Shown: one piece after another, positions 16,838-59,776 of the stretch
How positions within the stretch are numbered: position 1 is the stretch's first letter
Layout of the letters: each line of letters starts with the position of its first letter
Origin: an uncultured Actinomycetes bacterium
GTDB lineage: Bacteria > Actinomycetota > Thermoleophilia > UBA2241
Reading direction: 5' to 3'
DNA length: 64,000 nucleotides
NCBI GenBank assembly: GCA_963845355.1
Contig: CAWJRV010000028.1
Span: 1,427 to 65,426, forward strand
The notes under the pieces: model-generated
The model's database searches: none
Told to the model about the DNA's origin: nothing
Seen by the model: only the letters and a program-made list of their open reading frames with translations
Position numbers and translations under genes: made by a program

Positions 16838-16844
16838 GCGACGA

Positions 16845-28337: not shown

Positions 28338-28422
28338 CGCAGGGCGGCGTTGGAGCGAGTCGGACGGACGCAAGGGCGGCGTCAAAGCGGGTAGAGTCGA
28401 AGATCCCGCACGACGGGCAGCG

Positions 28423-28513
28423 GAGGGGTGGCCGAGCGGTTGAAGGCAGCGGTCTTGAAAACCGCCAGGGGTCGCAAGGCCCCTCGTGGGTTCGAATCCC
28501 ACCCCCTCCGCCA
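28423..28513 (+). tRNA. tRNA-Ser (anticodon TGA), CCA encoded; integration target of the island
   Basis: Acceptor stem ggagggg/cccctcc, anticodon loop ctTGAaa, long variable arm, T-arm gtggg-ttcgaat-cccac. Confidence 0.9.
28454..28513 (+). repeat. attL core (3' 60 nt of tRNA-Ser)
   Basis: cttgaaaaccgccaggggtcgcaaggcccctcgtgggttcgaatcccaccccctccgcca is repeated at 50210-50270. Confidence 0.85.
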
Positions 28514-28621: not shown

Positions 28622-29891
28622 TTACGACGCTCCGTCTACCGGCGCCGACAGGGCCGTTTCGAGGCGCTGCACGGCGTCGTCCTGCATCGACGGCAGGACG
28701 TGCGAGTACGTGTCCAGCGTGATCGCGATGGTCGAGTGCCCCAGCATCTCGCTGACGACCTTGGGATGGACGCCTTGCCCGAGTAGCAGGGTCGCGCAGG
28801 TGTGCCTGAGATCATGGAAGCGGACCTTGTAGTCGGTCTTGCCGATGAGGCTGCGCCAACTGCTCGCAAAGCTCTCCGGGTTCCAGGGGTCGCCCCTCTC
28901 CCCCGCGAACACGAGACCCTGGTCCCGGTAATCCTTCCCCTGAAGCAATCGCATGGCCGCCTGGTCGCTCTTGTGCTTGCGCAGAGCGGCAGCCGGCCGT
29001 CTCGGACAACATGACGACGCGGCGGCCACGCGAGGTCTTGGGCTCCTTGAACAGGGGTGCGCCGTGTATCCATTGGAGCGATTCGACGCAGCTTAGCGTC
29101 CTTGCGTCTATATCTATGTTGCGCCAGCGCAGCGCGAGCAGTTCGCCGCGCCTCATGCCCGTGTGGATCGCCAGCAGGACTGGTAGGTGCATCCTCGTGC
29201 CCTCCGCCTTGGCGAGCAGAGCACGAACCTGTTGGGCGTCAATCGTCTGCATCGGCTTGCGTGCCGGCTTGGGCGGCTGTACAGCGTCACAGACGTTGCG
29301 CACGACGAGGTTCCACTTCACGGCCCGCTTGAGTGCTTCGCTCAGAACTCGGTGATGATGCAGCACGGTCCTTGGCGAGAGGCCGGTCGGTTGGGGCTCG
29401 GCCTTCGCCCGCGAGCGCCGCTTGCCCTTCGGCTTGGCCACCTTCCGCTGGATGCGCCCGGACTTGAGCGCTTTGGCGTAGTAGCTCTGGACGTGCAGGC
29501 TGGTGAGCTTCGGTAGCAGCACTTCGCCCAGAGCTGGCACCAAGTGCAGCCGCACGATCTGCTGGTAGCGCAGTAGGGTCGCGGGCGACAGGTTCGACTC
29601 ACACGACGAAAGCCACTGTTCGAGGTAGTCGCGCACCTTGAGGCGTTGCGGGTCGATGTACGCGCCCGTCGCAATCTCGTTGAGGATGCGGGCGTGGTAG
29701 TTCTCGGCTTCCGTCTGGAGCCCATGGAACGTGTGTCGGCGCCGGATGCGCTTCCCGTCTGCGTCGTAGCCCAAGTCGACCACGAACGTCCAGACCCCCT
29801 TGCCCCTGCTCTTGATCGGCGCCTTCAACGGGACGCCCGTTGCTGGCGCTTCTGAAGAGGCCAGCACACCGAGACTTGGCGCCACCGTCAT
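28622..29891 (-). pseudogene. int: Tyrosine integrase interrupted by one frameshift (~28991-28997)
   Basis: The N-terminal frame reads KSRGKGVWTFVVDLGYDADGKRIRR...HTGMRRGELLALRW...KTSRGRRVVMLSETA. The C-terminal frame continues AAALRKHKSDQ...FHDLRHTCATLLL...LGHSTIAITLDTYSH (catalytic Tyr). The start may be ATG 29891 or TTG 29828. Confidence 0.8.
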
Positions 29892-30702
29892 CGGCTGGGC
29901 AGAAGCGCTGGCGGCCGTCCGTGACGAGGAACGGGGTGCGGCATGTGTCCAGCTCACAAAGCCTCACGAGTCCATGGTCAGCCCAATCGCCGACGTGAAA
30001 CCAGACGGTCTCAACGAGTGTTCTCGTGCTTGTCAGCCAGCGGAGGCGATTCTCGGGCAGGCTGGGGAAGAGAATCGTCTGAAGACTGCGCGTGTTCGAC
30101 GCGACCAGGTCCGCCACTATCTTCATAGCCAAGCCCGGTGCGTCCACATCGGGGTACATCTCGTTTCTGACTTCGAGGCCAAGAGCCAAGGTGAACCCGA
30201 GTGATGCGTTGGACGTGTCGACGAGGGCGGCCGAGCGCCACTCCGTCTGGTAGCGCGCCAAGACGGCTCCGACCTCCTCGGCAGAGTCGCCCTGGAGTGC
30301 CTCTAGCAGTTCCGTCGCGAAGCGAACCGACCTCGCCTGTGCCAGGAACCACGGCAGGGGGTCGCCTCCCGCCAGTCGACCCACCTCGCCCCTTATCGCC
30401 GCCTCCCTGCTCTCGTCGACCTCGGCCCCAGCCTTGAAGTCGGCCCACTCGTCCTCTAGCAGCGTTGGCACCAGCAACTCGCAGTAGCCGAGCAGGCCGT
30501 ACCTGCGGACGAAGTCACATGCAGACCTCTCGTCGACGACCTTCGACAGGGCGTTAGGCAAGTTGGGCACGTCCTGAGGTCGGTAGGCGCGTCGACGTAC
30601 TTCGTCCGGCTCATAGTTGATGACAAGCCCTTTGACGAACGGCTCGTCGCCCGCTCGCCAAGACACGCGGTCAACCTCAACGTGAGACTTTCTTACGCTC
30701 AT
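29599..30702 (-). CDS. Leftward hypothetical protein ending in a Cys4 (CGNR-like) zinc-finger motif
   Basis: MSVRKSHVEVDRVSW...LCELDTCRTPFLVTDGRQRFCPADDGGAKSRC. The last ~100 codons overlap int and look like filler. A shifted frame gives LQKRQQRASR-stop at ~29825. Confidence 0.5.
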   Translation of the reverse strand: MSVRKSHVEVDRVSWRAGDEPFVKGLVINYEPDEVRRRAYRPQDVPNLPNALSKVVDERSACDFVRRYGLLGYCELLVPTLLEDEWADFKAGAEVDESREAAIRGEVGRLAGGDPLPWFLAQARSVRFATELLEALQGDSAEEVGAVLARYQTEWRSAALVDTSNASLGFTLALGLEVRNEMYPDVDAPGLAMKIVADLVASNTRSLQTILFPSLPENRLRWLTSTRTLVETVWFHVGDWADHGLVRLCELDTCRTPFLVTDGRQRFCPADDGGAKSRCAGLFRSASNGRPVEGADQEQGQGGLDVRGRLGLRRRREAHPAPTHVPWAPDGSRELPRPHPQRDCDGRVHRPATPQGARLPRTVAFVV

Positions 30703-32338: not shown

Positions 32339-32483
32339 CGGGAGACTGTGAAGGGGAAACCATGACCATAAACGCAGCGAGGCCCGGGCGCCGTGGCAAG
32401 CAGACCCGGACCTCATCAAATCTACTTTTCATGATACTCCATCGGAGTCGGTCCGTCAACCAGGGTTGCCCTGCGGGTCCGAC

Positions 32484-33635
32484 ATGAACGGCGAGGTTCG
32501 TATCCCGAAGGACGAGTTAGACGGAGTCCTGAGCTTGTCGGCCGGCGGCAAGATCACCCCGAAGGAACTCCTTGCCGCCCTCACCATCTGTCGCCTCACC
32601 TACGGCCACAACAACCAAGGGCACACGAGTGTCCGAGCCCAGGCTGTCGCCGATCGCACCGGCATGAGCGTGCGGGGCGCGCAGCGGAGGATCAAATCCC
32701 TCGGCGACAAAGGCGTCCTGAAGACCTGGGGCGCAAACAGCAGGGGCGTGCTCGATGTAGGACTGCACCCCGACGTGTCGATAGCGGGTCAGGCGATGCA
32801 GGCGCGCCTGGCGAAGGAGTACGCCGACAGACAGTCCGGAAAGCCCACCCCGTCACTAGCTAGTGACGCAGTACCCCGTCACCAGCTAGTGACGCACCCC
32901 CCGTCAGTAGCTAGTGACGCACCGATGAAGCATTCCTCTAGAAGCACACCCATTGAAACAGTCCCTAGAGAAGGGGACCTCGCTAACGCTTCGGGGGAAA
33001 CCCCCACTCGGGCGACCGTCGAAGCAAGCCCCTGCGCTCCTTGCCCCCTCGTTAGCCCAGGCACGAAAGACGGCACCGGGGAGGAGGCGGAGCCGCACGT
33101 TACGCCGCCGGCTCCCTATCACCAGAGGGATTCCCTCCTCTCTGACGACACGCTCGCCCGGGCGGTCGGCGCCTTCGACCCGGATGGTCGGGTGTCCGCA
33201 AAGGCGGGAAGGGGAGCGATCCTGCGTCTCTGGGTGCGCGTTCTCGACGAGGCGTGGTGCTCTGGATATCAGCGCGCCTCCGACGAACGTCTCGTCGAAG
33301 TTCTTCTGCCGATCATGGAGCGAGTCGGGGCCGAGAAGGCCAAGTACATCCTCCGCGATGACGTGCGCTATCCGGCCTCCTATCTCGACAGCGTTGGCCG
33401 CGACGAGTTGCTTTTCGAGGAGGACGGCGACCTGCGGGAGCTCAAACAGGCCGAGCGTGAATCTGACCGCGACATCGAACGCACAGCCGTGCCCAATGAG
33501 AACGCTAGGAAGCTGGCGGAGTTGGCACGCCAGACGATGGATCGTATGGCGGAAGAGGGCCGCTCCATCTTCGGGCCGCCCGAAGAGGAGCCGGAGTGGG
33601 AGCGCGGTCTGGGTTACTCGATGGGGATGGCGTGA
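32484..33635 (+). CDS. Replication-organiser-like protein (winged-helix N-terminus resembling phage O/replisome organiser)
   Basis: ITPKELLAALTICRLTYGHNNQGHTSVRAQAVADRTGMSVRGAQRRIKSLGDKGVL. Acidic C-terminus. Iteron-like repeats lie inside the gene. Confidence 0.6.
   Translation: MNGEVRIPKDELDGVLSLSAGGKITPKELLAALTICRLTYGHNNQGHTSVRAQAVADRTGMSVRGAQRRIKSLGDKGVLKTWGANSRGVLDVGLHPDVSIAGQAMQARLAKEYADRQSGKPTPSLASDAVPRHQLVTHPPSVASDAPMKHSSRSTPIETVPREGDLANASGETPTRATVEASPCAPCPLVSPGTKDGTGEEAEPHVTPPAPYHQRDSLLSDDTLARAVGAFDPDGRVSAKAGRGAILRLWVRVLDEAWCSGYQRASDERLVEVLLPIMERVGAEKAKYILRDDVRYPASYLDSVGRDELLFEEDGDLRELKQAERESDRDIERTAVPNENARKLAELARQTMDRMAEEGRSIFGPPEEEPEWERGLGYSMGMA
32851..32921 (+). repeat. Three copies of a 16-bp palindrome GTCACTAGCTAGTGAC (+CGCA): candidate origin iterons
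   Basis: cGTCACTAGCTAGTGACgca (32851-70), cGTCACCAGCTAGTGACgca (32878-96), cGTCAGTAGCTAGTGACgca (32902-21). Spacing is 27 and 24 nt. Confidence 0.7.
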
Positions 33636-33937: not shown

Positions 33938-34564
33938 TGGAGCACCTGTGGTACCGGATGAAGGGCAACACCACGGACTATGCCGTCTCGCGGTAGCGTG
34001 CTACTCCACCGGTTCGTTACCGGCGCGCGCGCGGGACGGTCGTCCACCACAAGGACGGCGATGGCCTCAACTGCCGCAGAAGAACCTGCGAGTGCTAGCC
34101 GCGCCGCACACGTCCGTACGACAGGGCCGGCGGCAGGTTCTTCGAGCCAGTACAAGGGCGTGACGAAGAGTGGCAACGAGGGAAGACCGTGGCAGGCCCG
34201 CCTCGGGATCGACCGCAAGCACTACTACCTGGGCCGCTACGCTTCCGAGGTGGAGGCTGCCCGAGCCTACAACGCCGCTCAGGCGAAGTTCGTCGGCTTC
34301 ACATCTGGCGCTTACTTCAACGACATTCCGAAGGGATCGCGCTTCGGCCGCATCGTCCTACCAGAGGCGTCGCTGCTACGGCTCAACAATGCTGCCGCAG
34401 AGTACCGGCTTCGAAGCAAGTCCGAGACATCTTATGGCCACGAGGGGAAAGTCGCGGCTCTATTCGCACGGGGGGTGGCTCATGGGGAGTCAGAAGAACA
34501 GGTTTGCGTCGCCAGCCAGGACGTCCGTCGCCATCAGCCCGGTCGCGACAAGCAGGGGCAGTAG
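33871..34564 (+). pseudogene. HNH endonuclease with AP2 DNA-binding domain, broken by about five frame switches
   Basis: Pieces in different frames: IPLKGGR | VALVDFEDAERVMEHLWYRMKGNTTDYAVSR | GSVLLHRFVTGARAG | TVVHHKDGDGLNCRRR | NLRVL | ...SSSQYKGVTKSGNEGRPWQARLGIDRKHYYLGRYASEVEAARAYNAAQAKFVG (AP2). Confidence 0.65.
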
Positions 34565-34567
34565 GCC

Positions 34568-37500
34568 ATGCCGCTAATCGTCGGCGACCTCAACGGCAAC
34601 CCGACCATCGTTGCGCCCCCGCCGAAGAAGAAGAAAGACGACCAAGGCCCCCTCGGCCCACCCACTTCCCGAGACCAGAGACGGTGGCGTCCCCATCGCC
34701 CGTCGCGCCAGCGGCTCCCGCCGCCACGCCGCCTGCCGAAATCCGCATCGCCAACATCGTGCAGGGCTACCATGCCGCCACCGGCCGCATCCCCGCGGCC
34801 GAGAAGATTCACGACGCACTCTCCATCTCCACCGGCCAGGAGGATGCCTTCTACTGGATGCAGCACTTCGCTCCGCTTGGCAATCCGGTAGTGCCGCTCT
34901 CCATCCGGCAGGCCGCCGCCAAGGGCGACTACCTCTCGCCGGGAAAGTTAGACCCGACCATGCCGCCGGATGTAAAGAGTCTGGTGCCCTACAACCAGCA
35001 GACAGTCACGACGCAGACCCCGCAGGAGTTGCTGTATGGCGGCGAGGCGACAGTCGGCCCGAGCCAACAGTTCTTCGCTGGCGGCCCCAATCCGCAGGAG
35101 CAAAGTGCCAAACAGGGACTCCTGAACGTCGTCCACGCCCTGACGCTGCCGACCTACGCCCAGCAGTATCAGAAGAACGTGGCCGACGCTGCGCTGTCGA
35201 AGTGGCCCGCCCTCAAGCCGCTGGGCCAACTCCTCGCCATCCCCACGTCCACGAACTTGCAAGACGCCATGAACGTCGGCGTGCTGAAGAACTACCTCGA
35301 TTCGCGCGGCTTCAGTGGAGCGCTCACCTCACCGAGCGGTACGCCGCAGTACATCGGGCCGCTGTCTGCTCCGTTCAAGAACACGGCCAAGCTCAACAAC
35401 GCGATCCGCACCTACGTCTTCTACCACGACCTCGCTCCCGCTTTGAGCGGCGACCTCAACGCCGAGACGGAAGCCGGCGCCACGGGGATGCTCCAGTCGG
35501 GCGAGTCCGTCGTCGACTATGTGCGCAACATGCCGGGATCAGACGAGGACCACAAGAATCTCGTCTACCTCTGGTCGTTCACCTCCCGGCCCGCCGACAT
35601 GCCCGCCGGGGCCTTCGCCGAGTGGTATCACGCCAAGTATCCGTCGCTCACTCCCGCCATCGTCCAGCAGCAACTCGCGCAGAAGAACACCAACAACCTG
35701 TCGGACATGAGCGCTATCCCCGACGACGTAAAGCAGGCGTTCTCCTACATCAACGCCAAACTTCCGAGGGACTGGCAGAGCGCCAATAGCGATGTCGGCA
35801 AGGCAGCGAACTCCGTCGTCGGCTTCATGGTGCGCCCACTATCGGATGTCTTGCAGGGCAACATCCGCGAGATCGGACCCGGAGCGCAGGGCAAGGTCGT
35901 CGGCCACATCAAGGTCGACGGCATGGTCCCGGCTCAGTTCGTGGCCCAGACGGTCAACTACGCCCTCAGCGTGCCCGAGCGCCAGATCGCCGCCCAGGTC
36001 TACGCCACTCTCGGCCTGTATCGCATGGCGAACGGCGACGAGAAGCTGAATCAGGTCATCAGCCAAGCGGCCAGCCAGATCACCCAGACCAAGGTGACGC
36101 CGGGCCAGGAGTTCGTCAAGGCAGTCGGCCTCGACCCGGTCAACCAGAACTGGCTCGCCTGGATGGGCGACCAAGCCTCGATGATCGCCGCTGGGTCCGT
36201 TTATGACGCCGCCGGGAAGGCCCTCGTCTCCGGCGCGCTTGACACCGACGCCGCCCGCGCCATCGCCGGGAGCGTCGGCATCAAGACCGACGCTCAGGTC
36301 ATCGCCTCTCTGAACGCTGTCGAGGACCCACAACTGCGTCAGTTCGCCATGCGCCTGCACTACGACGCCTGCTCGCCGAGCGAGTCCGCGCACTGGTCCA
36401 CGCTGGGCACCAACCCCGACGACATCGCGGTAGACCCGCGAGTGTCGGCGGCGACATCCTCGCCCCATTGGCGCGGGCCGTCCTCGCCGAGTCTAGCGTC
36501 CACATGGAAGCTACGGGCCTTCCAAAGCGAAGATGCCCCGGCCTTGCAGCGCGCCTTCCACCTCTCGACCATGGACGCATCGCCGGTCGACCTGACCTCG
36601 ACCAGCCGCGCCGACATCCAGACCTTCCAACATCTGCTACACCACGGCTATGAGGTCAAAGACGCGATGGCCTGGGGCGCCAAGATGACGCAGGCCATGA
36701 TCGACGACGCCAAAGCCGCGACTCCCGCCGAAGGAGAGGCGGCCCCGGCGCGCCAGTTCGCCAATGCCTCGAAGGTCAAGGCCGACCTCGAACAGGAGAT
36801 TGCCGATCACTATCGCTGGGACGAGAAGCCCAGCACCGACAACCCCGCCGGCGTCGTGCGGCAGCCCTCAGCGAAATTCATCCAGGCCATCAAAGACGAC
36901 CCGCTCATCGGACTCAACTGCGAGGACCCCGCGCGCCCCAGCTTCTACGACGAGTACCAGCACTTCGACCAAGCCCTCCAGAAGCACTACTCCACGCGCT
37001 TCGGCCCAAACCGCATGTATGCGCCGACGCTCGACGAGAACGGCCAAGTCATCGAAGGATCGAAGGCCCCTACCCCCACGACGCGCACCAACCAGACCGC
37101 GCGACTGGCCGACATCGACCGCAAGATAACCGCTCTGCGCCGCAGGGCGTCCTTGCAGAGCGAGTTCGACGTCACGGGCGCCACGCCGGAATGGGGAACC
37201 GCGACCAAGCCGAACCCCAAGGGCTACGTGCTGGGTGCGGACCAAACCATGCGCGCCCCGGCCCCGAAAGAGAACCTTCTGGCACAGGCCAACCCCGCGA
37301 CGACAGAGGTGCAGTTCAGCCCCGACGAGTTGCGGGCCGAGCGCGAGGACCTGCTGCTGCGCCAGAAGGAAAACGCCAAGGTCGGCGAGTCGTTCCACAG
37401 CCAGAAGACCGTTGACTCAGACCAGCCTTACACCGACGCCGAGCTCTGGCACCACATCCGAGACTCTGGCGGCATCAAGCCAGACGACGCCTACAAGGAC

Positions 37501-37839
37501 TCGCACGTCACCGGCCGCGAGAACACGGCGGCCTACAAGGGCCTCGCGCGCAAGGGCGGCCAGCCCATCGACGAACTCGCCAGCGACATCGCCGCCAACT
37601 TCCCGCACTTCGGCATCCGCAACGCCGACGACCTGCGCGAGTGGCTCGACAACTACAAGCCGCCGGCCAAGGAAGCGTCGACAGCCGAGCGCGACATCTA
37701 CGGAACCAAGGCGAGCCAAGACCCGCGTATCTGCGGTGCAGAAGGCGCTCTCTGCCGCCCAGAAGGCAGATACTCCCGAGTCCAAGCTCGCCGTCGTCTC
37801 CAGGGCCATCGACAAGATAGACATGACCCATGTGACTGA
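34568..37839 (+). CDS. Giant island protein, segment 1 (no recognisable domain)
   Basis: Sensible sequence in the 34189-37839 ORF from ~34690 (AEIRIANIVQGYHAATGRIPAAEKIHDAL...). The start is either ATG 34568 (MPLIVGDLNGNPTIVAPPPKKKKDD, another frame, tightly following the previous stop) or GTG 34684. Confidence 0.6.
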
Positions 37840-40390
37840 CTGGGAAGCCTTCCACGAGCCCAGCGCAGCGTCCCAGTACGCCTACCGACGCGCCCAGCTA
37901 CAGCACTTCATAGACGACTACCGCATGAGTGACCCGGCCGCCATCAGCGCTCGCATCAAGTTCATCGAGGACCGCTTGGCTGGCAAGACCACGGGTACTG
38001 CTGTGGCTCAGACGGAACTTGCTCCGGTAGGCGGCCACCTGTCTGCCGACGACGCGGCCGCCCTCAAGGCCCTGCGCGCCAAGCGCAACTCTGCCGTTAA
38101 GTCTCTGCGCTCCGCCACCGGGACCGTGCCGACCCCGCTCACCGAGACGCAGCTCGCACACCTTGCCGACTGGAATCACAACGAGATGACCGCAGCCATC
38201 TTCAACTCCTCGGACGCGATGAAGGAGTGGACTCTCAAACAGGAGAAGTGGGGCGCGCTGCACTGGAACACGGTCAACAACGGCTTCCGCAAGATGGCCC
38301 TGTTCCGCGTCGGCACGCAGATCAACATGAACACCGCCGACGAGGGCTTCATGGCGCTCATCGACGGCACGATTCCCGTGCGCGCCCTGAAGGACTACAA
38401 GAAGGCCCTGACCAAGCAGGAGATATCCGCCATCGACTCTGCCGGTCCCGAGTTCCAGGCCCAGATCGCCGCCATGAACCTCTCGCCGCACCGCATCTGG
38501 GATGCCGTCAAGCCGGGGGAGAAGGGCTTTTCAGACTGGGCAACCAAGCGCCTCTCGACGTTCTCCGTTCCCTCGTCCAAAGTCTGCTCTGACTGGTATG
38601 ACGGCTACCTCGAAAGCCTCGCCAAGCTCTCCAAGAACGGCACCGTGAAGATCACGGGCCAGATGTCAGACGAAGCCTGCGTTGCGGCCACCAAGCGGCT
38701 CGCTACCATGGCCCGCAGCGACCCCTGGTATCGGGACTTCCTCACCGAGACCGGGGTCGTTCCGCGCGACTACTACATCCGCGCCATCGGCGCAGACAAC
38801 ATCGACGAGTGGGCCACGGCCGTCGACCAGCAGGCACGGCCGATGATGCGCAACGGCGTCGCCCGGCGCCACTTCTCTCAAGGGGTGCGGTCGGTCAAGG
38901 AGGGCGAACTCGACGACGTGAAGGTGCAGCAGGCGTATGGCCCGGTGCCGCGCGAGACCCACACGGCCGGCGTCACAAACGCCACCAGCCCGACGAGCAA
39001 GGTGTTCGACTCGGCCACGGGCAAGATGTTCGAGGTCTCGAACATCATGTCGCAAGCCACGCGCGCTCAACAGTTCTGGCGCTACTACAGCAACGAACTC
39101 GCTTTCCTCAAGAGGAGCTTCCCGGCGCTCGGCGAAGACGAGATGATCCCCATCGCCCGCACCAAGGCATACAACGCGATGAAGAGCGTGGCCTACTTCA
39201 ACAACCGCACGCTCACCGAAGAGGCCCTGCACAACGTCGTCTGGTTCTTGCCCAGTTACCGACAGTTCTTCGCGCGCTGGATTCCCTTCATCGGCAAGAA
39301 CTTCTTCAAGATGTGGGCCATCGCCAACGCCGGTTCGCAACTGGCGAAGCTGCGCGTGCCCAACTCCGTGCCCATGATCGGCGGCAACACCGCCTTCGAC
39401 CTCGCGGCCTTCGGCACGTTCTTCAAGCCCTACTTCTCGCACGACATGACGACCTATCAGCGCATCCGCCAGATGGCTCCCCCGCTAGCCGGCTCGCTCA
39501 GCAGCATCGCCGAGAGCGGAGCGCTTGTCGGCAACCTCCTTGGCGCGACCGCTCCCGAGACGTTCTACGAGAAGATAAGCGGCGGCTTCAAGGCAGGACA
39601 GGGCGCGAGCGGGCTGCCCGGCATGGGCCAGCTCGCTGGGCCGCTCGACTCGCTCATCTACGCGAGCACCGGCCTCGGCTCTCACGGTGTTCTCGGCGTC
39701 GGCCCAGACACCCCCGCGCAGGTGCAGAAGGCCCATCAGCGCGTCGCTCTCGTCACGTACGCCATGATCGACCAGGCACTCGCCTCCAACGGCCGCTCCG
39801 TCGACCAGAAGAAGGCCGTGGACCAAGTGCGCTTGCAGTCGGGAGCCTTTGCCGCCACCAAGGAAGTCTCGCCGCTCACGAGTTCGCAGGTGTTGCCCCG
39901 CAAGACCTACACGGTGACGCCCTACGTCGTGACGAAGAACAAGAACGGTACCTACGCCGTCACTCCTGGGTCCAAGCAGAAGGTGACGATAGACCTCCAG
40001 CAGATGCGTGACGCCGCCTACGAACTGATGAGCGCGCCCGCCTCGCAGGCGGGAGCCGTCCTCAAGAAGTACCCAGAGTATGCCAAGGTACAGAAGGCGT
40101 GGACGCTGACCGGCGACGCGCGCATGGCCTTCCTCGCCCAAAACCCCGAGGTCATCCCATTCGTCAGCCGCCGTACTGAGGCCAACCCCAACACCACCGG
40201 AACGCCGACTGCCTTCTACGTTGAGGGCCAACGCACCGACATGACGCCGCAGCAGCTCCAGTCCTCCATCCAGCAGACCTACCGCGACGTGCAGAAGTGG
40301 GTGCTGTCCCAAAACTACGCGTCCCAACTGGCGGTCGTGAAGTCGCAGTTCGCCAAGGCCATGACCGCCAAGTACGGCAAGGGCTACTGA
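37700..40390 (+). CDS. Giant island protein, segment 2 (+1 frame relative to segment 1)
   Basis: The protein sense continues across frames: ...STAERDIYGTK | (R)AKTRVSAVQKALSAAQKADTPESKLAVV.... The remaining ~890 codons are uninterrupted. Confidence 0.6.
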   Translation, partial: TEPRRAKTRVSAVQKALSAAQKADTPESKLAVVSRAIDKIDMTHVTDWEAFHEPSAASQYAYRRAQLQHFIDDYRMSDPAAISARIKFIEDRLAGKTTGTAVAQTELAPVGGHLSADDAAALKALRAKRNSAVKSLRSATGTVPTPLTETQLAHLADWNHNEMTAAIFNSSDAMKEWTLKQEKWGALHWNTVNNGFRKMALFRVGTQINMNTADEGFMALIDGTIPVRALKDYKKALTKQEISAIDSAGPEFQAQIAAMNLSPHRIWDAVKPGEKGFSDWATKRLSTFSVPSSKVCSDWYDGYLESLAKLSKNGTVKITGQMSDEACVAATKRLATMARSDPWYRDFLTETGVVPRDYYIRAIGADNIDEWATAVDQQARPMMRNGVARRHFSQGVRSVKEGELDDVKVQQAYGPVPRETHTAGVTNATSPTSKVFDSATGKMFEVSNIMSQATRAQQFWRYYSNELAFLKRSFPALGEDEMIPIARTKAYNAMKSVAYFNNRTLTEEALHNVVWFLPSYRQFFARWIPFIGKNFFKMWAIANAGSQLAKLRVPNSVPMIGGNTAFDLAAFGTFFKPYFSHDMTTYQRIRQMAPPLAGSLSSIAESGALVGNLLGATAPETFYEKISGGFKAGQGASGLPGMGQLAGPLDSLIYASTGLGSHGVLGVGPDTPAQVQKAHQRVALVTYAMIDQALASNGRSVDQKKAVDQVRLQSGAFAATKEVSPLTSSQVLPRKTYTVTPYVVTKNKNGTYAVTPGSKQKVTIDLQQMRDAAYELMSAPASQAGAVLKKYPEYAKVQKAWTLTGDARMAFLAQNPEVIPFVSRRTEANPNTTGTPTAFYVEGQRTDMTPQQLQSSIQQTYRDVQKWVLSQNYASQLAVVKSQFAKAMTAKYGKGY

Positions 40391-40869
40391 AGAACAAGGA
40401 GTATCTGGCGCTCGACGCCAAGACCGCGCTGCCGGCGCTCGTCGCCCAACTCAACAACCGCTTCGGGCACGCCAACCACGACGCCATCGCCTTCTCTCTG
40501 GCCAGCGGGAAAGACCCGTTCGCCGTCACCGACAAGTGGATCACGCCGGAGATTCAGTCCTCGATCAAGGTGCCCAACTGGGTCAACCGTATCAACGTGC
40601 AGACCAGCGGCACGCTGTCGACGGCTTCCTATCACGACATGGTGTCGGCCTTCGAGAACGGCGGCGCGGCGACGCGGGCCGACCTGCGCGCCTCGTCGGT
40701 GTGGCCCGAGTTTCTGGCGCGCTACCGCACAGACCAGGACAACGCCGCCGACAGCGCCATCGGCTACGCCCTCACGGCCGCAACGACCGGGCTGACGCCC
40801 GATCAGCGCACGATGGTAGGGATGCCCCAGGGTCACCCGCAGAGATGGATGTCATCGGGGGCTATCTGA
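40385..40869 (+). CDS. Giant island protein, segment 3 (or separate gene lacking an obvious start)
   Basis: ...AKAMTAKYGKG | LLKNKEYLALDAKTALPALVAQLNNRFGH.... The only in-frame start (GTG 40297) would overlap segment 2 by 94 nt. Confidence 0.45.
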
Positions 40870-41915
40870 ACCGCTCCCAGCAGTGGCACGACCAGCTCGC
40901 CAAACTGCCGTTGTTCTCAAAGGCATGGATCGCGGCCTACTCCGCCGAAAAGCGCGACCTCGCGACGTTCCGCACCGACAACAAGGTGCCGGCGCTCTCG
41001 ATGGATGCCGCCACCCTGCTCTCCCGTCTCGGGCTGGACAAGGAGCGCAACTGGGGCGGCCTCACCCCGCAAGAGCAGAAGATCGCCGACTACTGGAACA
41101 AGCAGACCATCAACGTCAAGATCACCGGCACTACCATCGACATGAACGGCTCGGCCGACCTCAAGCAAGTCCTCAAGATGGGCTCCCAGTTGCAGGGCGA
41201 AGCCAAGCAGCAGTGGCTCGAAAACCTGCGCGCCTTCTGGTGGAAGGGCGTCCTGCAAGTCGGCGAAGCCTGCCGCAAGTCGCTCGCTGCCACCTACGGC
41301 AAGTGGGGCTCGAAGGCCGGCGTCTACACGCCCGCCAACAAGTCCGGGGCCATCCTCGCCTACGCCGCCACCTTCGCCGGTACGCCTTACCTGTGGGGCG
41401 GCAAGACGCCCGCAGCGGGGTTTGACTGCTCGGGATACACGGCCTACGTGTACTCACACTTCGGCATCGACATCGGTAGCGGCACGCAGAACCAACAGCA
41501 CGCCGGGATGCCGGTATCGACCCAGCCGAAGGCGTGGCAGCCGGGCGACCTCATCTTCTACAACACCCACGACGGCCAGCCCTCGCCCTCGCATGTGGCC
41601 ATCTACGCCGGCAACGGCCTCATCTGGCAGGCGCCGCACACCGGAGCGAGCGTCGAGAAGGTCTCGTGGACTGAGCCCGGAACTGATGTCGTCGCGGTGC
41701 GCCGCGTCCTGCTCGGCAAGAGCGGCGGCCCCATTCAGGGCGAGAGTCTGACCTCCAACGACGGCAAGGCGATGCTGGCCAGCTTCGAGACCTTCTGCGG
41801 CCAGCTCGCCCAGCTCGACGTGCGGGTGGGCGGCGGACAGTTCGCCGACGAGTGGAAACGCTACAACACAAAGCACAACATCGCACGCGCCATCATCGAC
41901 CCGAGTAGGTTCTAG
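40845..41915 (+). CDS. NlpC/P60 (C40) cell-wall peptidase domain protein
   Basis: GTPYLWGGKTPAAGFDCSGYTAYVYSHFGI (Cys nucleophile), PSHVAIYAGNGLIWQAPHTG (His residues). ATG 40845 overlaps the preceding frame by 25 nt. Confidence 0.8.
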   Translation: MDVIGGYLNRSQQWHDQLAKLPLFSKAWIAAYSAEKRDLATFRTDNKVPALSMDAATLLSRLGLDKERNWGGLTPQEQKIADYWNKQTINVKITGTTIDMNGSADLKQVLKMGSQLQGEAKQQWLENLRAFWWKGVLQVGEACRKSLAATYGKWGSKAGVYTPANKSGAILAYAATFAGTPYLWGGKTPAAGFDCSGYTAYVYSHFGIDIGSGTQNQQHAGMPVSTQPKAWQPGDLIFYNTHDGQPSPSHVAIYAGNGLIWQAPHTGASVEKVSWTEPGTDVVAVRRVLLGKSGGPIQGESLTSNDGKAMLASFETFCGQLAQLDVRVGGGQFADEWKRYNTKHNIARAIIDPSRF

Positions 41916-41971
41916 TTGAACCGACCACAGAGCATGAACGAGGAGGTCAGCATGACTGAGGAATCCGACTA

Positions 41972-42834
41972 ATGGGCTGGAGCGTATCGACCGGCAAGCC
42001 GCCGGCCAAGAAGAAGCCGCCCAAGACGGGCGCAGCACGTTGAGTGGCACGAGTAGCGGGTCTGGCGCGAAGTCGACCAGCACGGGAGTGAAGTCGTATT
42101 CGTCCACCGTCTACGCCGACTACCTCAAGGAGATCGGCATCAACCCTGGCGCGCAGGGCGCGTGCGGCGGCGATCAAGTGGGCCATTGGAGCGCGGCCGA
42201 CAGCTCGATGTTCCTGCGCTACGTCAAGCAGACAATGCCCGGCCAGCTACCTTAAGACGAGCCTCGGCAAGAGTGACATCCGCAACTTCTTGGGTCAGTG
42301 GCGCTTGTACTCCACGGGCAAGCCATCGAAGGGCGACATGCTGAACTTCACGAGGGGCAACTGGACGGCATGGCAGATGGGCGAGTTCGTCCGTACGACT
42401 CCCTCTGGAAGACCTACCAGGCAGAGGGCATCGGCAACGCCACGCAGCAGTTGCAGGCCAACCCGAGCGAATTCTCGGCCTACGCCCAGCAGTTCGGCAA
42501 CATCCTCAAGAGCTACGGCGTGCGGCCCGACCAGAAGGGCACCTACAACGGTCAGCTCAAGATGGCCTTCGGCGGTCGCATCACGCCGACGACCTAGCCA
42601 ATAACGCGCAGACCTACTTCGGTGGGCGCGAGTCTTACGGCGATTGGACGGGCGCCGCCCCGACGCAGCAGACTGAGCAATCAGGCGCTCTACGGCGGTC
42701 AGGGTTCGGTCGCCGCCCAGTCGCGCATCGTGCAGGCTTTCAACCAGATCAAGAATTTTCAGCAGACTCCCGGGGCGTCCTTCAGCACCGGCACCACGAA
42801 CACCGGAGCCATTCAGCAATCGAGCGTTTTCTAG
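41972..42834 (+). pseudogene. Hypothetical gene fragmented by ~5 frame switches
   Basis: The sense can be followed across frames: MGWSVSTGKPPAKKKPPKTGAA | SGTSSGSGAK...VKQTMPGQ | SYLKTSLGKSDIRNFLGQWRLYS...WQMGEFV | PYDSLWKTYQAEGIG...FGGRIT | DDLANNAQTYFGGRESYGDWTGAAPTQQT | QALYGGQGSVAAQSRIVQAFNQIKNF... Confidence 0.5.
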
Positions 42835-43014
42835 CCGGAGGGGGGCGCGAGGGGTCGCAGTCGTGCCGAAAAACTACCGATAGCAGTTTCGACAAGGGTA
42901 GACTAACGATTGCGAGGAAGTATTTCAGTCAAGGCTGCAATCCTCCGATTAGTGGTATAAGAAAGCGTCTGGAACGCTCGTGCGATGGAATGCGACACAT
43001 GGACAGAGGGCACC

Positions 43015-43221
43015 ATGACGCATGCACAGACAGAGCGTTTGGCACAAGACATCAGCAAGCATAAGGGCCAGTGGGTTCTCGTTAAGGGAACTCGAGTCGT
43101 TGCTGCTGCGCCAAGCGTCAAAACTGCAATCAACAGCCTCCCCCAGAAAGATCGAAGTAAGGTTCGCGCTCAGTTCTGCCCGAAAGAAGACTACACGGGT
43201 TCGTCTTTTTCCGCGCTCTAG
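43015..43221 (+). CDS. DUF5678-like small protein
   Basis: MTHAQTERLAQDISKHKGQWVLVKGTRVVAAAPSVKTAINSLPQKDRSKVRAQFCPKED. Lies in a lower-GC stretch. Confidence 0.6.
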   Translation: MTHAQTERLAQDISKHKGQWVLVKGTRVVAAAPSVKTAINSLPQKDRSKVRAQFCPKEDYTGSSFSAL

Positions 43222-43585
43222 GTGCGGCTTCCCTCTCTCCGATTCCGACGCCCACCGGCCGCGTGGAAACACGCGTGTCGACGTCGCTTTCCGGGACGAT
43301 CCTGACGGCGTTCCGTACATGGCCCTCGTTGATTCCGGGTCGATACGAACGATCGTGCCAGCATCCGCGCTCGAGGGAATCGACATCGGCGAGCCGCTTG
43401 ACCGCATCGACAGGCTTTGTTTCGCCGTCTGGCAGCTTGACCGCGTTCCGATACATCGCCTCGACATGCGCATCGTCGCGCCGGCGCCGTGGGATGACAT
43501 CGAGCTCCCGGATGTTCCGGTGGCGGTTGCGGATGCCGACTTCCCTTCATCGTCCTTGGGTCCACAGCCCTTACCCACGTGGTAG
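43222..43585 (+). CDS. Retropepsin-like (clan AA) aspartic protease, probably with an early frame disruption
   Basis: PYMALVDSGSIRTIVPASALEGIDIG has the D-S-G active-site context. No in-frame start exists. GTG 43222 follows the upstream stop directly but in the neighbouring frame. Confidence 0.5.
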
Positions 43586-43741
43586 TCCTTCTGCGAGACG
43601 CGGACCAGCGACTTCACCTGAAGTCGACAGAGGCGTTCGCCAGGCCCGGCACCACGCGACGCCACATTCTGATGCGGTGCGGTGCCCGTGACGACGAAGC
43701 CGCTCCTCTGAGCCGGCCCCGCATCCGTGCGGTAGCTGCGC

Positions 43742-44251
43742 TCAGAACCGCGAGACGACGATGGCGGCAACCTCGAAAGCTATCCCCACGACGATGTACT
43801 TGAAGGCCCGCCAGCCCCGACGAAGTGTTCTCTGCGCTCCCTGTTCAGGCTGTCGGCAAGCGCCTTGGAAGCGTCCTCCTCCATTGCGACCATGCCGCCT
43901 CGTAGGTCACGCAAGGACTGCCAGATGGCCTTGATCTTCAGCGTCCGTGTCGGGATAGGAGACACTGAGGGTGAGGCTGGCTGACCCGGTGATGGTCCCG
44001 ATACGCCCCGTGGCTGCCAATCTAATGTTTCGTGGCGGAGCTGGCCTCCGCCATAGCCACGACCAAAGTCTTCTCAGCCACCGCCAGGACGCCGAACACA
44101 TTCGCGTAAGCGCACTCATCAGGCGTGCCCAGAACTGCCGCCCTCGCGACCGGACCGCTGACCACACGCCCTCCTCAATCAACCCGTCGGCAGCGCCGGC
44201 GGTGAGGAAGACGAGGCTAATGATGCTCAGTACGAAGGCGGGCCACGACAT
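43742..44251 (-). pseudogene. Two small membrane-protein ORFs with frame disruptions
   Basis: MSWPAFVLSIISLVFLTAGAADGLIEEGVW | ...GTPDECAYANVFGVLAVAEKTLVVAMAEASSATKH-stop (~44022). Then VSPIPTRTLKIKAIWQSLRDL...NRERREHFVGAG | WRAFKYIVVGIAFEVAAIVVSRF-stop (43742). Confidence 0.4.
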
Positions 44252-44459
44252 GGGCCGAGTGTCTACCAGCCGCAGACAGCGAAAGGGCCGCCCTTGGACG
44301 GCCCCTCGCCGGCGTGCGCCTGGTCACTGTCTCCCCGCGCGTCCGCAGTAGCGTAGCTTCCTGCCGCGCAGCCTAGCGACCATCCGTCTGCCCCAACAAG
44401 GCCGCGTGACCCCATTTCGGTTGACGTTCGCCTCGCACGCCCGCAACCGGCCCACTCGT

Positions 44460-46045
44460 CTACAGCTTGGGGAAGCTGCGGGCTGAGATGACGCGGTCGT
44501 ACTTGCCCGAGCCCATGCCGAGCGTGATGGTCCACTCTGACCCCTGAGTGTATGTGGTGACTGTCGTATACCCCGGAGAGTATGTCGTCGAGGAAGATGA
44601 CGAGGTGGAAAACGCCAGCGGGTCACGCGACCTCACACACTGCAGAGTGGTGAGGAAGTCGCGCGTGTAGCTGTTCCAGTCCTTACCGACGCAGTCCCAG
44701 GCGATATAGCTTCCCTCGGCAACCTTGTTGATCGTGGTCCTGCTTTTCGCTCGGACGTAAAACGCCAGGACTGGGGTGTCCGAACCCCCGGCCGGCGTCA
44801 AGATCACCATCGCATCAATCGCCATTGGGTCCTTGATGACAAGTTTCCCCATCCCGTCGCGCATGTGTCTACGCAGAATGTCTCCGTTGGCTAGCCGAAT
44901 TGGCTTGACCACCATGACCGTCGTCGCAGCGTCACCCGCTCGGAGCTTGCAGAGGCCGGGCGACGCCACTGTGACCGTGTAGGTGAGCGGTAGATTCTGC
45001 CCTGGCGCGACCTCGGCAGGACGCGCGCCGGCCTCTTTGCCGTTGGTCTCAATGGTTCCGGGGAAAGTCGGCGAGACGTCTCCGAGGTTCTTGACCGAGG
45101 CGGTCACGATGATGTCTTCGCCTACCGAAAAGACCCCCGACACGGAATGTGGCAGAGCTTCGCCGACCTCTTCGGTTCGAGCGATTGCCTTGAGTCCGCT
45201 GACATGGAATGTGGCCGGGCGAAGTGCGACCGCGGCAATCTCAGTGCCGCCGAGAATCAGCAGATGATGGCCACGCGACGTACCGCTGGGAACGGGAAGG
45301 TCGACAGACCGCGTCTGCCCAGCCGAGAGAGGCAGCTGCATGTCAGCCTGCTTGATGCCATCGAGGGCATAGGAGCCCGTGTAGGTGCCGGCGAACAGGC
45401 CGTCGTTCTTCACCTTGACGGTCAGCGTTGGCGCAGCACCGAGGATCACGCGCTTGTCGCTGGGGACGACAACCCGGTAGTGGGGCATCCACCACAGCAC
45501 GGCCGCAAAGACGATGGAGGCCGCGAGGAGCGACGCGACGGTCGCCGCAAACCGCTTGCGGGATGTCAACTTGGCCAGACCCCACAAGAGCGACGCGACG
45601 AGTACCGCAGCCAGCAGCGTGAACGCAATGCCGACACCGTTGCGGACCGAGGCTCCCCACCCACGGCGAACCAGACTACGATTGCGAAGACTGCAATCGC
45701 AACCACTGCTCGCCAGACCCAACGCCAGCCGCTAAGGCCACCTCCAGACAACGCTGCTGGCGGTGCGACGAGCGACGGAGGGGTCGCAGCGCCAGTGGGC
45801 GCTGGGCCGCCCTGATGTGGGACTGCATGAGCGGGAGGACGGGGCGCGGCTGCTACCTGGATCACCCACTCAAGCAGACCCTCGCGCGCCCAGTCGACCT
45901 GGCCCAGAGCGTCGTAAGTCAGGACGTCCTGGGCCGTGATGGGGCCATGGCCTTGAAGGATGAACTGGTGGCGGGTCTCGTCGTAGGTGATGGTGCTGCC
46001 CGACCAGCTCGTCGTTTGATTGAAGACCGCGACAAGCAAACTCAT
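44460..46045 (-). CDS. Large membrane protein: cytoplasmic N-domain, Pro-rich linker, TM helices, extracellular Ig/CARDB-like repeats; one frame switch (~45645-45665)
   Basis: The 159-aa ORF (MSLLVAVFNQTTSWSGSTITYDE...AIVVWFAVGG) continues in sense into the 420-aa ORF (GASVRNGVGIAFTLLAAVLVASLLWGL...) across a G-run. Confidence 0.55.
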
Positions 46046-46169
46046 GTTGACCCCCCGGTCGACCAGTCGAGTCTACTACGAATCAAAAGCGGCGAAGAAA
46101 CCAGCAAAGAGGATGGTCCAGGCGGCCACAAAAGCCACCGAACCCCAGACCAACGCTGCGGAGCCGAAG

Positions 46170-46907
46170 CTAGACTGTCCGCGCCTCGACGTAGAGGTCG
46201 TTGCGGAGCAGGTAGCGCACGCGACTCTGGATACCAGCGGCCGCCCCGACGCGTCGTCACGCCGGCATCGTTCAAGCGCTGGCAGATGGTCCGCAGGCTA
46301 AGTCCGTCTTGTGACCACTCTTGAACTTGGGCGACCGTCGCCAGTTCGCCCGCATGAGCCTCCAGGAGCCCGTCTGAGCGCGTGTATCCGTACGGCGTTG
46401 GTCCGTAGGCCCGCAGGTGCTTCTTCTTGTGTGCGAGGGCGGCCGTCGTGCGCTCGCTGATCAGCGCGCGCTCGAACTCGGCAAAGCCGGCCAGCATGGT
46501 CAGCATCATGCGTCCGGTGCTGCCGGCCGTGTCGATCGCCGCGCCGCCCATGTCCACCAGGTGCAGCGCCACGCCGGCGGCGTTCCAGCGCTCGGTAAGG
46601 ATCAGGGCGTCGGCAGCGTTGCGGAATAGTCTGTCAAGCTTGTAGGCGACGACGTGCTGGGCCTTGCCGGCCGCGATCAGCTAAGCAGCTCCGCGCCGCC
46701 GGGCCGCGTGTGAAGGTGCTTGTAGGCGCTCACGCCCTCGTCGCGGATCGTCGCTGCGACCTCGAAGCCGCGCATCGTGCAGTAGGCCCTCAGGCGCTCT
46801 TCTTGGGCTTCGAGGGAGACGCCGTGGCGCGCCTGCTCGTCGGTCGAGACGCGCACGTAGAGCACGGCTCTGTCTGTCGCGGTGATCTTCATCGCGCCCC
46901 CCTTCAC
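46170..46907 (-). pseudogene. Serine recombinase (resolvase domain + start of recombinase domain), two frame switches and truncated
   Basis: MKITATDRAVLYVRVSTDEQ (catalytic Ser) ...GAELL | LIAAGKAQHVVAYKLDRLFRN...GRMMLTMLAGFAEFERALISERT...GGRWYP | SRVRYLLRNDLYVEARTV-stop. No zinc-ribbon or coiled-coil part follows. Confidence 0.7.
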
Positions 46908-47353
46908 AGCACACTCTTGAGGTAGTCATCTAGCACCGATTGCAGGATGAGGCGCTGCTTGCCGGTCGCGTTGCGCAGACAGCGAAGTGTGCCGTCGTCG
47001 CACCAGCGCCGCACGGTCATCGGGCTGACCTCGTAACCTCGCTCGGTGAGATAGGCGGCGGCTTCTGCCGTCCTGAGCGTCTGCTCGTTCGGTGACGAGA
47101 CCCGACTTCTGGACCTCGCCCAGAACTCCTCAAGCGCGCTCACGGGGATGCGCCGATGCTTGTACCCGATGGCGCCGCGCTCCTCGCGGACCCGCTGCAA
47201 GACCTCGGGCGGTGGCACGCAACGCAGCTTGCCTTCCTCGCAGAGCGTCTGGATGGTGCGCAGGTTGATGTCCTTGAGGCCGCGCTCCCTGAGGATCTGA
47301 AGCGCCTCAGTGGTCGTGTAGGGTTTCCTGCTGTTCGGCTTCCTGGCCGCCAC
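46904..47353 (-). CDS. Double excisionase-type HTH protein (possible recombination directionality factor or regulator)
   Basis: Two HTH modules: YTTTEALQILRERGLKDINLRTIQTLCEEGKLRCV and LRTAEAAAYLTERGYEVSPMTVRRWCDDGTLRCL. Its stop overlaps the recombinase GTG as GTGA. Confidence 0.7.
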   Translation of the reverse strand: MAARKPNSRKPYTTTEALQILRERGLKDINLRTIQTLCEEGKLRCVPPPEVLQRVREERGAIGYKHRRIPVSALEEFWARSRSRVSSPNEQTLRTAEAAAYLTERGYEVSPMTVRRWCDDGTLRCLRNATGKQRLILQSVLDDYLKSVL

Positions 47354-47378
47354 GCCCGCACCCCTTCGGTCGGTCTCT

Positions 47379-47417
47379 CTGCTGACAGCAGCATATACCT
47401 CTGCCCGTAACAGTCAA
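47379..47417 (-). promoter_or_regulatory. Sigma-70-like promoter (TTGACT-16 nt-TATGCT) with an overlapping 13-bp palindrome
   Basis: The minus strand reads ggtgTTGACTgttacgggcagaggtaTATGCTgCTGTCAGCAGagag. CTGCTGtCAGCAG overlaps the -10/TSS. AAGGGG ribosome-binding site and GTG 47353 follow. Confidence 0.45.
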
Positions 47418-47840
47418 CACCGTTAGAGTCGGCCAATAGCAGACTCGTCATGAGCGATCCGGCAGGAGTGGACGTCACGTGCGAAAGGCTGCCCCACCCA
47501 GCGCCGCCGCAACCCCCTCCTGCCTCACTGACAGACATAACTGAGGGACAGAGACACAGATGAGGACAGAGAGAAGTCGGTCTGTATACCCTGTGGGGTA
47601 TATGCAGGGAAGATGCAGCGAGGCGCGCGAGCGCCGAGCTGGGGCTCGCAGATTCGCAGGCTGGACTTTGTCCCGGCCGTGCAAAACGCCGTCGCCTACC
47701 TATTGTGAGCTTGCAAACGGTCCAAACTCCCGCTTAGCGACACAGGCTCGGAAGAGTCTTCCCGCACTCTGCCCTGAGCACGAGAAGGCCCCCCGCCGGC
47801 GTGCGACGAGGGGCTTTCGTGCGGAGCGTTGTGTCAGACG

Positions 47841-48176
47841 CTAGCGCTCGCGACTTCGTCTAGCCTCGGTGTAGTCGCAGATGGTCGGATCGGAGAAGAT
47901 GATCGCGGCCTGGTCGCGCTGCTCGGCGATGTACTTGTCGAGCCAGTCGCCCGGGCGCTGTGCTTCGTGCTCGAGCTCGTGCGCCGCCTCGTGCAGTGCG
48001 GCCGGGGCCACCCGCTCGTCGTGCGTGACTGTTGGTCCCTCGAAGTCGATGAACCACTCGCCCGTGCGCTTGTAGACGACGATCAATTCCTCGACTCCGA
48101 AGCAGTCATCAGTGAAGTCGCCGATCTTGTCGAGTAGACGCTGCTTGCGACGGTCTGTCTGTGCGGTGGTGCCCAT
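47841..48176 (-). CDS. Hypothetical acidic protein
   Basis: Intact 111-aa ORF with coding-like composition (LIVVYKRTGEWFIDFEGPTVTHDERV...). No family recognised. Confidence 0.5.
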   Translation of the reverse strand: MGTTAQTDRRKQRLLDKIGDFTDDCFGVEELIVVYKRTGEWFIDFEGPTVTHDERVAPAALHEAAHELEHEAQRPGDWLDKYIAEQRDQAAIIFSDPTICDYTEARRSRER

Positions 48177-49132: not shown

Positions 49133-49162
49133 CTCAGCTCATGCGGCGATAGCCGAGGTAGC

Positions 49163-49996: not shown

Positions 49997-50067
49997 AACC
50001 CCTCAGAGCATACGACCGCTACCGGACGGCAGCAATAGGCGCGTTACGTCGTCTGGCCGCCGCACGG

Positions 50068-59762: not shown

Positions 59763-59776
59763 TCCAGCTCTCGCGT

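Follow-up and report, generated by a model that had tools for sequence, protein, structure and literature searches.

The window examined here, a 64,000-nt stretch of DNA from an uncultured Actinomycetes bacterium (contig CAWJRV010000028.1), carries a giant gene within a genomic island bounded by repeats of a tRNA gene. As judged by alignment with homologues, the interval 34568–41915 represents the remains of one gene of ~2,450 codons (7.35 kb), including the NlpC/P60 peptidase part at its 3' end. The gene is cut here by three, probably four, single-base frameshifts, and a single protein is probably not made from it. On balance, we favour the view that it is a pseudogene lying in a cryptic element, and that the ancestral product probably was a virion-internal or ejection protein that brought its own cell-wall endopeptidase.

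The listing of open reading frames (ORFs) on the forward strand gave 34189–37839 (1,216 amino acids (aa), frame 1), 37235–40390 (1,051 aa, frame 2), 40297–40869 (190 aa, frame 1), and 40536–41915 (459 aa, frame 0). In a plot of GC content at third codon positions (GC3), exactly one frame was coding at any place within 34568–41915, with GC3 of 0.80–0.95, and the coding frame switched at ~34650, ~37711, ~40383, and ~40850 with a non-coding gap at none of these positions. Past each switch, the abandoned frame became Arg/Pro-rich and low in GC3 up to a stop codon. Every segment is closed by an in-frame stop, and the sequence as given is not one open frame; the shift directions at the four joins (numbered 0 to 3) are −1, +1, −1, and −1. 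The segments, and the two domains lying within them, are as follows.

34568–34651, + strand: segment 0, frame 2, N-terminus of the giant gene (MPLIVGDLNGNPTIVAPPPKKKKDDQGP), from translation
34652–37711, + strand: segment 1, frame 1, ~1,019 codons, N-terminal third to half, from the GC3 plot and phmmer
37417–37689, + strand: ~80-aa mobile domain inside segment 1, TDAELWHHIRDSGGIKP...GGQPIDELASDIAANFPHFGIRNADDLREWL, from homologue matches
37712–40384, + strand: segment 2, frame 2, ~890 codons, conserved core predicted to be mostly helical, from the GC3 plot and AlphaFold2 (AF2)
40385–40850, + strand: segment 3, frame 1, ~155 codons, into which HMMER alignments continue from segment 2
40845–41915, + strand: segment 4, frame 0, 356 codons, C-terminal part, which can be read as an NlpC/P60 gene of its own
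~41379–41666, + strand: P60 domain (PF00877) with the DCSG Cys and the SHV His

A preliminary description, made from the sequence alone, had read consecutive frame segments as one continuous polypeptide. This is supported both by the unbroken coding signal and by single-protein homologues that are colinear with all segments. The two joins that it quoted, ...ERDIYGTK joined to AKTRVSAVQKAL... and ...TAKYGKG joined to LLKNKEYLAL..., were reproduced by translation. It had also described a giant of ~2,100 codons followed by a P60 gene; the giant is real, but the gene runs on into the P60 ORF, giving ~2,450 codons up to 41915.

Evidence for this extent came from exhaustive HMMER searching with a 1,200-aa query that was deliberately spliced across joins 1 and 2. 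The search matched 37 proteins, two of which were the window's own public gene calls, annotated as separate proteins at 34684–37839 (P0002) and 37823–40390 (P0001) and both known from one NCBI/ENA contig of 65,462 bp. About 20 of the 37 are giants of 2,096–3,225 aa with 20–32% identity (E 4e-77 to 1e-10), and the matches left after giants and window calls are small proteins sharing one ~80-aa domain. The only short proteins covering segments of the giant gene in this search were the window's own calls. For alignment, segments 0–3 and the P60 ORF were fused into a protein of 2,454 aa, which matched the giants colinearly from N-terminus to C-terminus (P0004, P0005, P0006, P0011). Single HMMER alignments covered query residues 1168–2246 (P0004), 1186–2257 (P0006), 1185–2249 (P0005), and 1175–2253 (P0011), and these span join 2 (aa 1937/1938), join 3 (aa 2098/2099), and ~150 residues of the 'NlpC/P60 gene'. 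Join 1 is crossed by the alignments of P0014 (query 973–1935) and P0003 (query 943–1073), and join 0 by that of P0006 (query 21–128). Residues 6–155 of the NlpC/P60 ORF are homologous to the C-terminal regions of giants that have no P60 domain, while in P0012, P0013, and P0014 an NlpC/P60 domain lies inside the giant protein at the equivalent relative position. Because the homologue alignments run into the NlpC/P60 ORF and three homologues carry the P60 domain, the gene unit was taken as 34568–41915. When the repaired 2,098-aa protein (without the P60 part) served as query in a word-indexed homologue search, nothing was returned; with the family alignment as query, one protein, P0038, was retrieved.

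The individual segments carry family hallmarks. The giants share an N-terminus with a KKKK run followed by NIVxGYxAATGxLP; as in segment 0, the homologues begin with ~10–15 residues ahead of the KKKK(K) run (P0004, P0016, and the consensus), and the motif IxNIVxGYxAATGxLP lies within segment 1. The first frameshift falls somewhere within 34636–34700. By phmmer, segment 1 aligns with the N-terminal parts of P0004, P0006, P0011, and P0013. Segment 2 is the best-conserved region across all homologues and contains TADEG at 38333 and the hallmark FLPSYRQF at 39245–39268; within the corresponding MFLPAYRQF..W motif of the giants' core, the residues F-P-Y-Q-W are invariant. The window copy shares colinear homology with the family over the N-terminal motif, the helical core, and the C-terminal region, and differs from the family pattern of a single uninterrupted ORF of 2,100–3,200 codons in consisting of four or five frame segments.

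These alignments leave very little room for the view that the segments are separate functional genes as publicly annotated (34684–37839, 37823–40390, a short third ORF, and P60 from 40845), produced by a lineage-specific split. ATG 37823 and ATG 40845 are plausible starts, two of the calls are held as database proteins, and the analogous region of the Beephvirinae phages (see below) is split into several genes. However, the new-frame coding signal begins 110 nt before ATG 37823, where the old frame is low in GC3 and Arg-rich; segment 3 lacks an initiation codon close to where it starts (no ATG, GTG, or TTG in its frame between 40297 and 40570); segment 0, with the family KKKK motif, would be left out; and all homologues are uninterrupted. 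Outcomes named beforehand as contrary to a single polypeptide, namely assignment of the segments to tape measure or minor tail genes, or independent ORFs in the homologues, were looked for and did not appear. Programmed ribosomal frameshifting, which would join the segments in translation, can be invoked for the continuity of the coding signal and nothing more; it is not credible, because the four events are of mixed direction and no slippery heptamer is found at any join, and the homologues are encoded in a single frame.

The genomic setting of the relatives identifies the giants as a previously undescribed family of phage head-module proteins. The relatives were found on contigs from Logan (L001, L002), IMG/VR (L003–L006), and Joint Genome Institute metagenomes (L007–L013), plus L034 and L035, with lengths of 42–51 kb and 58–65% GC. 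The same gene order was present in every long-enough contig, corresponding to ~10 distinct phages once duplicates were removed: large terminase (TerL; PHROG 38), portal (PHROG 64), a ~125-aa protein, the giant, a protein of 250–800 aa, a ~180-aa scaffold-like protein, and the major capsid protein (PHROG 1328, major head protein). Pfam assigned the capsid protein to PF17236 (SU10_MCP) and also recognised SU10_adaptor and a beta-helix tailspike; these adaptor and tailspike genes lie 3' of the capsid gene, together with genes for tail proteins. A tape measure gene was not seen in the relatives' contigs. The giant ORF is unbroken in all of them (2,219–2,454 codons in L003–L005 and L007). The locus is the head module of short-tailed phages, whose hosts are probably high-GC Actinobacteria, and the phage relation proposed earlier for the polypeptide is confirmed by this placement.

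The phage clade that carries the giants, with members such as contigs Ga0209539_1000104 and IMGVR_UViG_3300025764_000005, is uncultured. By tblastn against 50,697 GenBank phage records, neither segment 2 of the window, nor the L005 giant, nor P0038 gave a match, and the relatives' TerL gave none either; their capsid protein gave only matches of ~25% identity to unrelated phages. Plasmids searched by tblastn with segment 2 yielded no match, and pattern scans of GTDB representative genomes with segment 2 and the core alignment yielded no relative.

The protein itself offers few recognisable features outside its C-terminal part. The repaired 2,098-aa product is rich in Ala, Ser, Thr, and Gln and has only four Cys; it contains no Walker A, HExxH, or CxxC motif, no hydrophobic segment (no 19-residue window at Kyte–Doolittle 1.2), and no internal repeat, in agreement with the reported lack of a Walker motif, transmembrane cluster, or tape-measure-like periodicity. 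The three big segments had zero matches in sequence searches of Pfam, PHROGs, NCBIfam, and the PDB, in line with the earlier remark that they hold no recognisable domain. The peptidase called at 40845–41915 was recovered with PF00877 at 76.6 bits against a gathering cut-off of 23 (E 1.6e-21, profile positions 1–92 of 105). Its DCSG Cys and SHV His align with those of gp10 of the Streptomyces phage Abafar, and the third position is Gln versus His in Abafar. In PHROGs, the P60 part matched 'tail protein with lysin activity' and 'minor tail protein'.

The ~80-aa domain in segment 1 matches at least 15 stand-alone proteins (82–231 aa) and four giants. Its consensus is TDxxLWxxIxxxGGIxR...ENRRAxxYLDR...DxLAxEIxxxFPxFGIxDxDDLWxWL (proteins P0017–P0035; L030–L032), and its position varies between giants, lying within the core in P0003. 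A stand-alone protein with this domain is encoded beside integrase and single-stranded DNA-binding protein (SSB) genes. The domain had no Pfam match. Its AF2 model (predicted local distance difference test, pLDDT, 76.5) shows four helices and short strands, and gave no fold match in the PDB.

Given the position, size, helical character, and P60 domain of the giant protein, and the analogy with phages SU10, T7, Burro, and the Beephvirinae, we infer that it is probably an internal virion or ejection protein with a cell-wall endopeptidase. In this model, the product would be loaded into the head close to the portal and would leave it before the DNA does. The long helical body of the protein would help to bridge the thick actinobacterial envelope, and the C-terminal NlpC/P60 endopeptidase, in the window copy and some relatives, would cut peptidoglycan locally. 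The giant would then do in one polypeptide the work of a short-tailed phage's set of ejection proteins.

In phage T7, the ejection proteins gp14–16 are several helical proteins of ~2,300 aa in total. SU10 has five ejection proteins, gp20–24, which amount to 2,956 aa in total and of which one is a peptidoglycan hydrolase (PMC9509320). The proposed product would resemble the SU10 and T7 sets in being head-packed, in leaving before the DNA, in being largely helical, and in including a peptidoglycan hydrolase, and an SU10-type capsid and adaptor occur in the phages that carry relatives of the window gene. In contrast, the SU10 and T7 ejection proteins are several separate proteins whose genes lie at the far end of the structural module, and their hydrolase is a transglycosylase, whereas the window P60 part is of the NlpC/P60 type. 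Among phages of Actinobacteria, gp27 of the Microbacterium phage Burro (4,491 aa), encoded beside the portal gene, is reported to be virion-associated (PMC7302621). Like those of the window family, the genes for Burro gp27/gp31 and their Cluster EK counterparts are giant, diverge fast, are poor in domains, and adjoin the portal gene in podophages of Actinobacteria, but their proteins exceed 4,400 aa, twice the length, and are encoded upstream of the portal gene, whereas the window family is encoded downstream.

The closest parallel in layout was found in Abafar and other Beephvirinae, which are short-tailed Streptomyces podophages of 44–46 kb and ~60% GC infecting high-GC actinobacterial hosts. 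Between their portal and capsid genes lie a very large unannotated protein (gp8) and an NlpC/P60 protein (gp10), the P60 domain of Abafar gp10 being 41% identical to that of the window. In Abafar, a Manuelvirus-type podophage, this interval (L024, 5394–15996) encodes proteins of 1,644 aa, 271 aa, 435 aa (NlpC/P60), 433 aa, and 386 aa, together ~3,170 aa of unannotated protein, and the endolysin is encoded elsewhere. The region is split into five genes, in contrast to the single giant gene, and the capsid is N4-type, whereas that of the window gene's relatives is SU10-type. The Abafar layout is strikingly parallel to the giant gene, but homology of the large proteins is not demonstrable.

Several results weigh against a role in ejection. 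Homology tests against Abafar gp8–12 were negative or insignificant, the large protein scoring ~0–4 bits in HMMER, with two weak colinear motifs, and 3% probability in hhalign; Burro gp27 scored below 0 bits against the family hidden Markov models (HMMs), with no similarity; and SU10 gp20–24 gave no HMM or BLAST match to the family. The AF2 model of the core (window 38012–40384, 11-sequence alignment) was mostly helical with one small beta-sandwich and was of low confidence (pLDDT 59). With this model, Foldseek found nothing in the PDB and three matches in BFVD with probabilities of 0.98–1.0 and template modelling (TM) scores of only ~0.2. One of the three is the large hypothetical protein of the Streptomyces phage Manuel (gp10); for the large protein of the Beephvirinae, the Foldseek probability was 0.98 and the TM score 0.18, obtained with the same low-confidence model. 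The family's tie to the virion or to ejection is drawn from position, size, composition, and analogy.

In another, less likely reading, the giant is virion-associated but serves in head assembly or as a portal accessory (a MuF-like role), or is anti-defence cargo akin to polyvalent proteins. The slot right after the portal gene is the position of MuF-like genes in many phages, the ~80-aa domain shared with small proteins whose genes lie beside integrase and SSB genes hints at modular cargo, and weak BFVD matches (probability ≤ 0.08) were obtained to 'large polyvalent protein associated domain' (LPD) proteins. On the other hand, no MuF (PF04233), LPD, or enzymatic Pfam domain except P60 was found in 16 members, and the polyvalent-type BFVD matches are insignificant. 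Polyvalent proteins of phages and conjugative elements, reportedly described by Iyer and colleagues in 2017, are said to combine LPD, MuF, ArdC, methylase, or helicase modules. They resemble the giant in being very large, in being delivered alongside DNA, and in the possible presence of cell-wall peptidases, but these modules are absent from the window protein and its homologues. The likeness to polyvalent proteins suggested in the preliminary description did not survive this search (window protein, E ≤ 0.1; 15 homologues, E ≤ 1e-3), and the stretch that it likened to a polyvalent linker domain belongs to the separate, unannotated ~80-aa domain, which also occurs alone.

Three further candidates were considered and rejected. 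For a tape measure protein (TMP), no Pfam or PHROG TMP match was present in the window protein, there is no internal repeat, and the gene in the relatives lies between the portal and capsid genes; a weak phrog_2337 match was seen in one of 16 family members. For an N4-like virion RNA polymerase, scans of Pfam, NCBIfam, and the PDB showed no polymerase family, no direct comparison with N4 gp50 having been made. For a conjugative VirB4/VirB6-type protein, neither a Walker motif nor transmembrane segments were present.

Giant domain-poor genes next to the portal gene recur in actinobacterial podophages (Burro, Cluster EK, Beephvirinae). The window adds a third family, unrelated by sequence. It counts ~20 members, which share a conserved core and of which some include an NlpC/P60 domain, and its place in the head module is fixed. 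The family is new, while its kind, that is, giant, domain-poor virion-module proteins of actinobacterial podophages, is already known. It lends weight to the proposal that short-tailed phages infecting thick-walled hosts bring along very large internal proteins to get through the envelope, and supplies alignable sequences for testing this proposal.

The window has ~70% GC, with a 62–65% GC stretch at roughly 28–50 kb. The island that houses the window copy extends over 28454–50270 (21.8 kb) and is bounded by 60-nt repeats of the 3' end of tRNA-Ser(tga). An integrase gene lies by the tRNA gene, and the far border repeats the tRNA 3' end, as in tRNA-integrated islands. The giant gene takes up 6.3 kb of the 21.8 kb, or 7.35 kb with the P60 part, which agrees with its reported share of more than a quarter of the element. 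The features of the island outside the giant gene are as follows.

28454–28513, + strand: attL, 3' part of tRNA-Ser(tga) (gene 28422–28513), from direct repeats
28622–29963, − strand: tyrosine integrase with a frameshift near 29000, PF00589 positions 2–74 and 89–169 being in different frames
32466–33635: replication-O-like gene, a weak match
33980–34564, + strand: HNH/AP2-type endonuclease-like ORF (PHROG 99, E 1.8e-12)
44460–50002, − strand: right arm, encoding a membrane protein (weakly CARDB-like), the serine recombinase, an HTH_17 protein, and a class I methyltransferase
46042–46925, − strand: serine recombinase with a frameshift near 46680, PF00239 positions 1–56 and 60–141 being in different frames
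50210–50270, + strand: attR, repeating the tRNA 3' end but one G longer

Frame switches were scanned over the window as same-strand frame changes in which the upstream frame stays open well past the switch. Suspicious switches occurred inside the island only, and the scan raised no flag in the 42 kb of flanking host sequence, to which the PstP-RodA region belongs; seven indels scattered randomly over the 64 kb would be confined to the island with a probability of ~5e-4. The split Pfam profiles of the integrase and recombinase, a one-base indel in attR, and the lack of any other phage structural gene in the window also speak for decay. Because the breaks are island-specific and several lie outside homopolymers, we consider them likely to be real mutations in a decaying remnant. 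Most likely, the island is a decaying, immobile cryptic remnant and the giant gene a recent pseudogene. As to annotation, a single gene underlies four public 'hypothetical protein' calls, and the island is probably a dead remnant and not an active element.

Some features of the locus count against the favoured interpretation. Apart from stops that follow from the shifts, the 7.35 kb contains no in-frame stop, and its GC3 signal matches that of intact genes; the lack of nonsense codons and the undiminished GC3 therefore imply either very recent decay or indel errors. ATG 40845 at join 3 sits exactly at a possible start of a separate P60 gene. Finally, both ends of the 7.35-kb gene are intact and every neighbouring virion gene is missing, which is odd for random deletion.

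The first of these features leads to the less likely but serious alternative that errors of sequencing or assembly, limited to the island (e.g., from low or mixed coverage of a variable region), produced the frameshifts, in which case the giant gene, integrase, and recombinase would be intact and the element possibly active. All disruptions are ±1 with zero nonsense codons in 7.35 kb and GC3 as in intact genes, the first join lies near a C5 run, the attR differs by one G in a G run, and the sequence comes from one 65-kb contig in an assembly of the draft or metagenome type. The attR has GGGG at 50244–50247 where attL has GGG at 28488–28490 in an otherwise identical 60-nt repeat, and the repeat spacing shifts from 21756 to 21757 within it. 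Such errors do not readily account for the 42 kb of host flank without a single frameshift-like switch, for the mixed shift directions, or for the several indels outside homopolymers (between AG and CTGATC in the recombinase, and at ACGGCCGGCTG in the integrase). If the indels nevertheless were errors, a further and improbable scenario would follow, in which an intact 21.8-kb integrative element is a satellite whose only virion gene encodes a 2,450-aa single-chain ejection or wall-breaching protein, loaded into helper podophage capsids for genome delivery, and the family is a one-polypeptide 'ejectosome' of uncultured SU10-like phages of high-GC Actinobacteria.

For the decaying remnant that we prefer, the origin of the giant gene can be narrowed by its surroundings. 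No homologue of the terminase, portal, capsid, or other neighbours of the giant gene was found anywhere in the window, and the order TerL, portal, ~125 aa, giant, scaffold-like, SU10-type capsid protein is not seen there. The ATG of segment 0 at 34568 lies 4 nt past the stop of the upstream HNH/AP2 ORF. Taken together, the intact ends, the missing neighbours, and the abutting HNH/AP2 ORF suggest acquisition as a cassette or a mosaic island and not a simple deletion derivative. The HNH/AP2-like ORF is a possible agent of such cassette movement, and HNH genes are also found in the head module of the related phage L001.

The left arm of the island comprises the tyrosine integrase, Cro-like and Xis-like helix-turn-helix genes, and the weak replication-O-like gene. 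Inside the latter, three tandem iterons of ~26 nt (32843–32921) carry the palindrome GTCAC(T/C)AGCTAGTGAC, and the array resembles a lambda-O-style origin; the encoded protein had no homologue in the word-indexed search. The right arm is transcribed opposite to the left arm and may be a second, nested or fused element. In the integrase, the N-terminal SAM-like and arm-binding parts share a frame with the first catalytic half, and the RHRH/Y half is read in a different one. The break in the serine recombinase follows ...GGAELLS, with a 1-nt loss at the AG/CTGATC site, and a probable second shift near 46225 follows ...GGRWYPES, the recombinase domain stopping early.

Right 3' of the giant gene, within 41956–44460, lie two small ORFs (99 and 106 aa) without homologues, followed by ~1.8 kb of weak, frame-unstable coding signal that possibly contains more degraded genes. 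The host flanks (12750–20156, − strand, and 59574–63232, + strand) contain a PP2C phosphatase and FtsW/RodA pair (PstP-RodA-like) among large same-strand ORFs, as well as five clustered tRNA genes (Ser, Arg, Ser, Ser, Val), a content typical of a high-GC actinobacterial chromosome.

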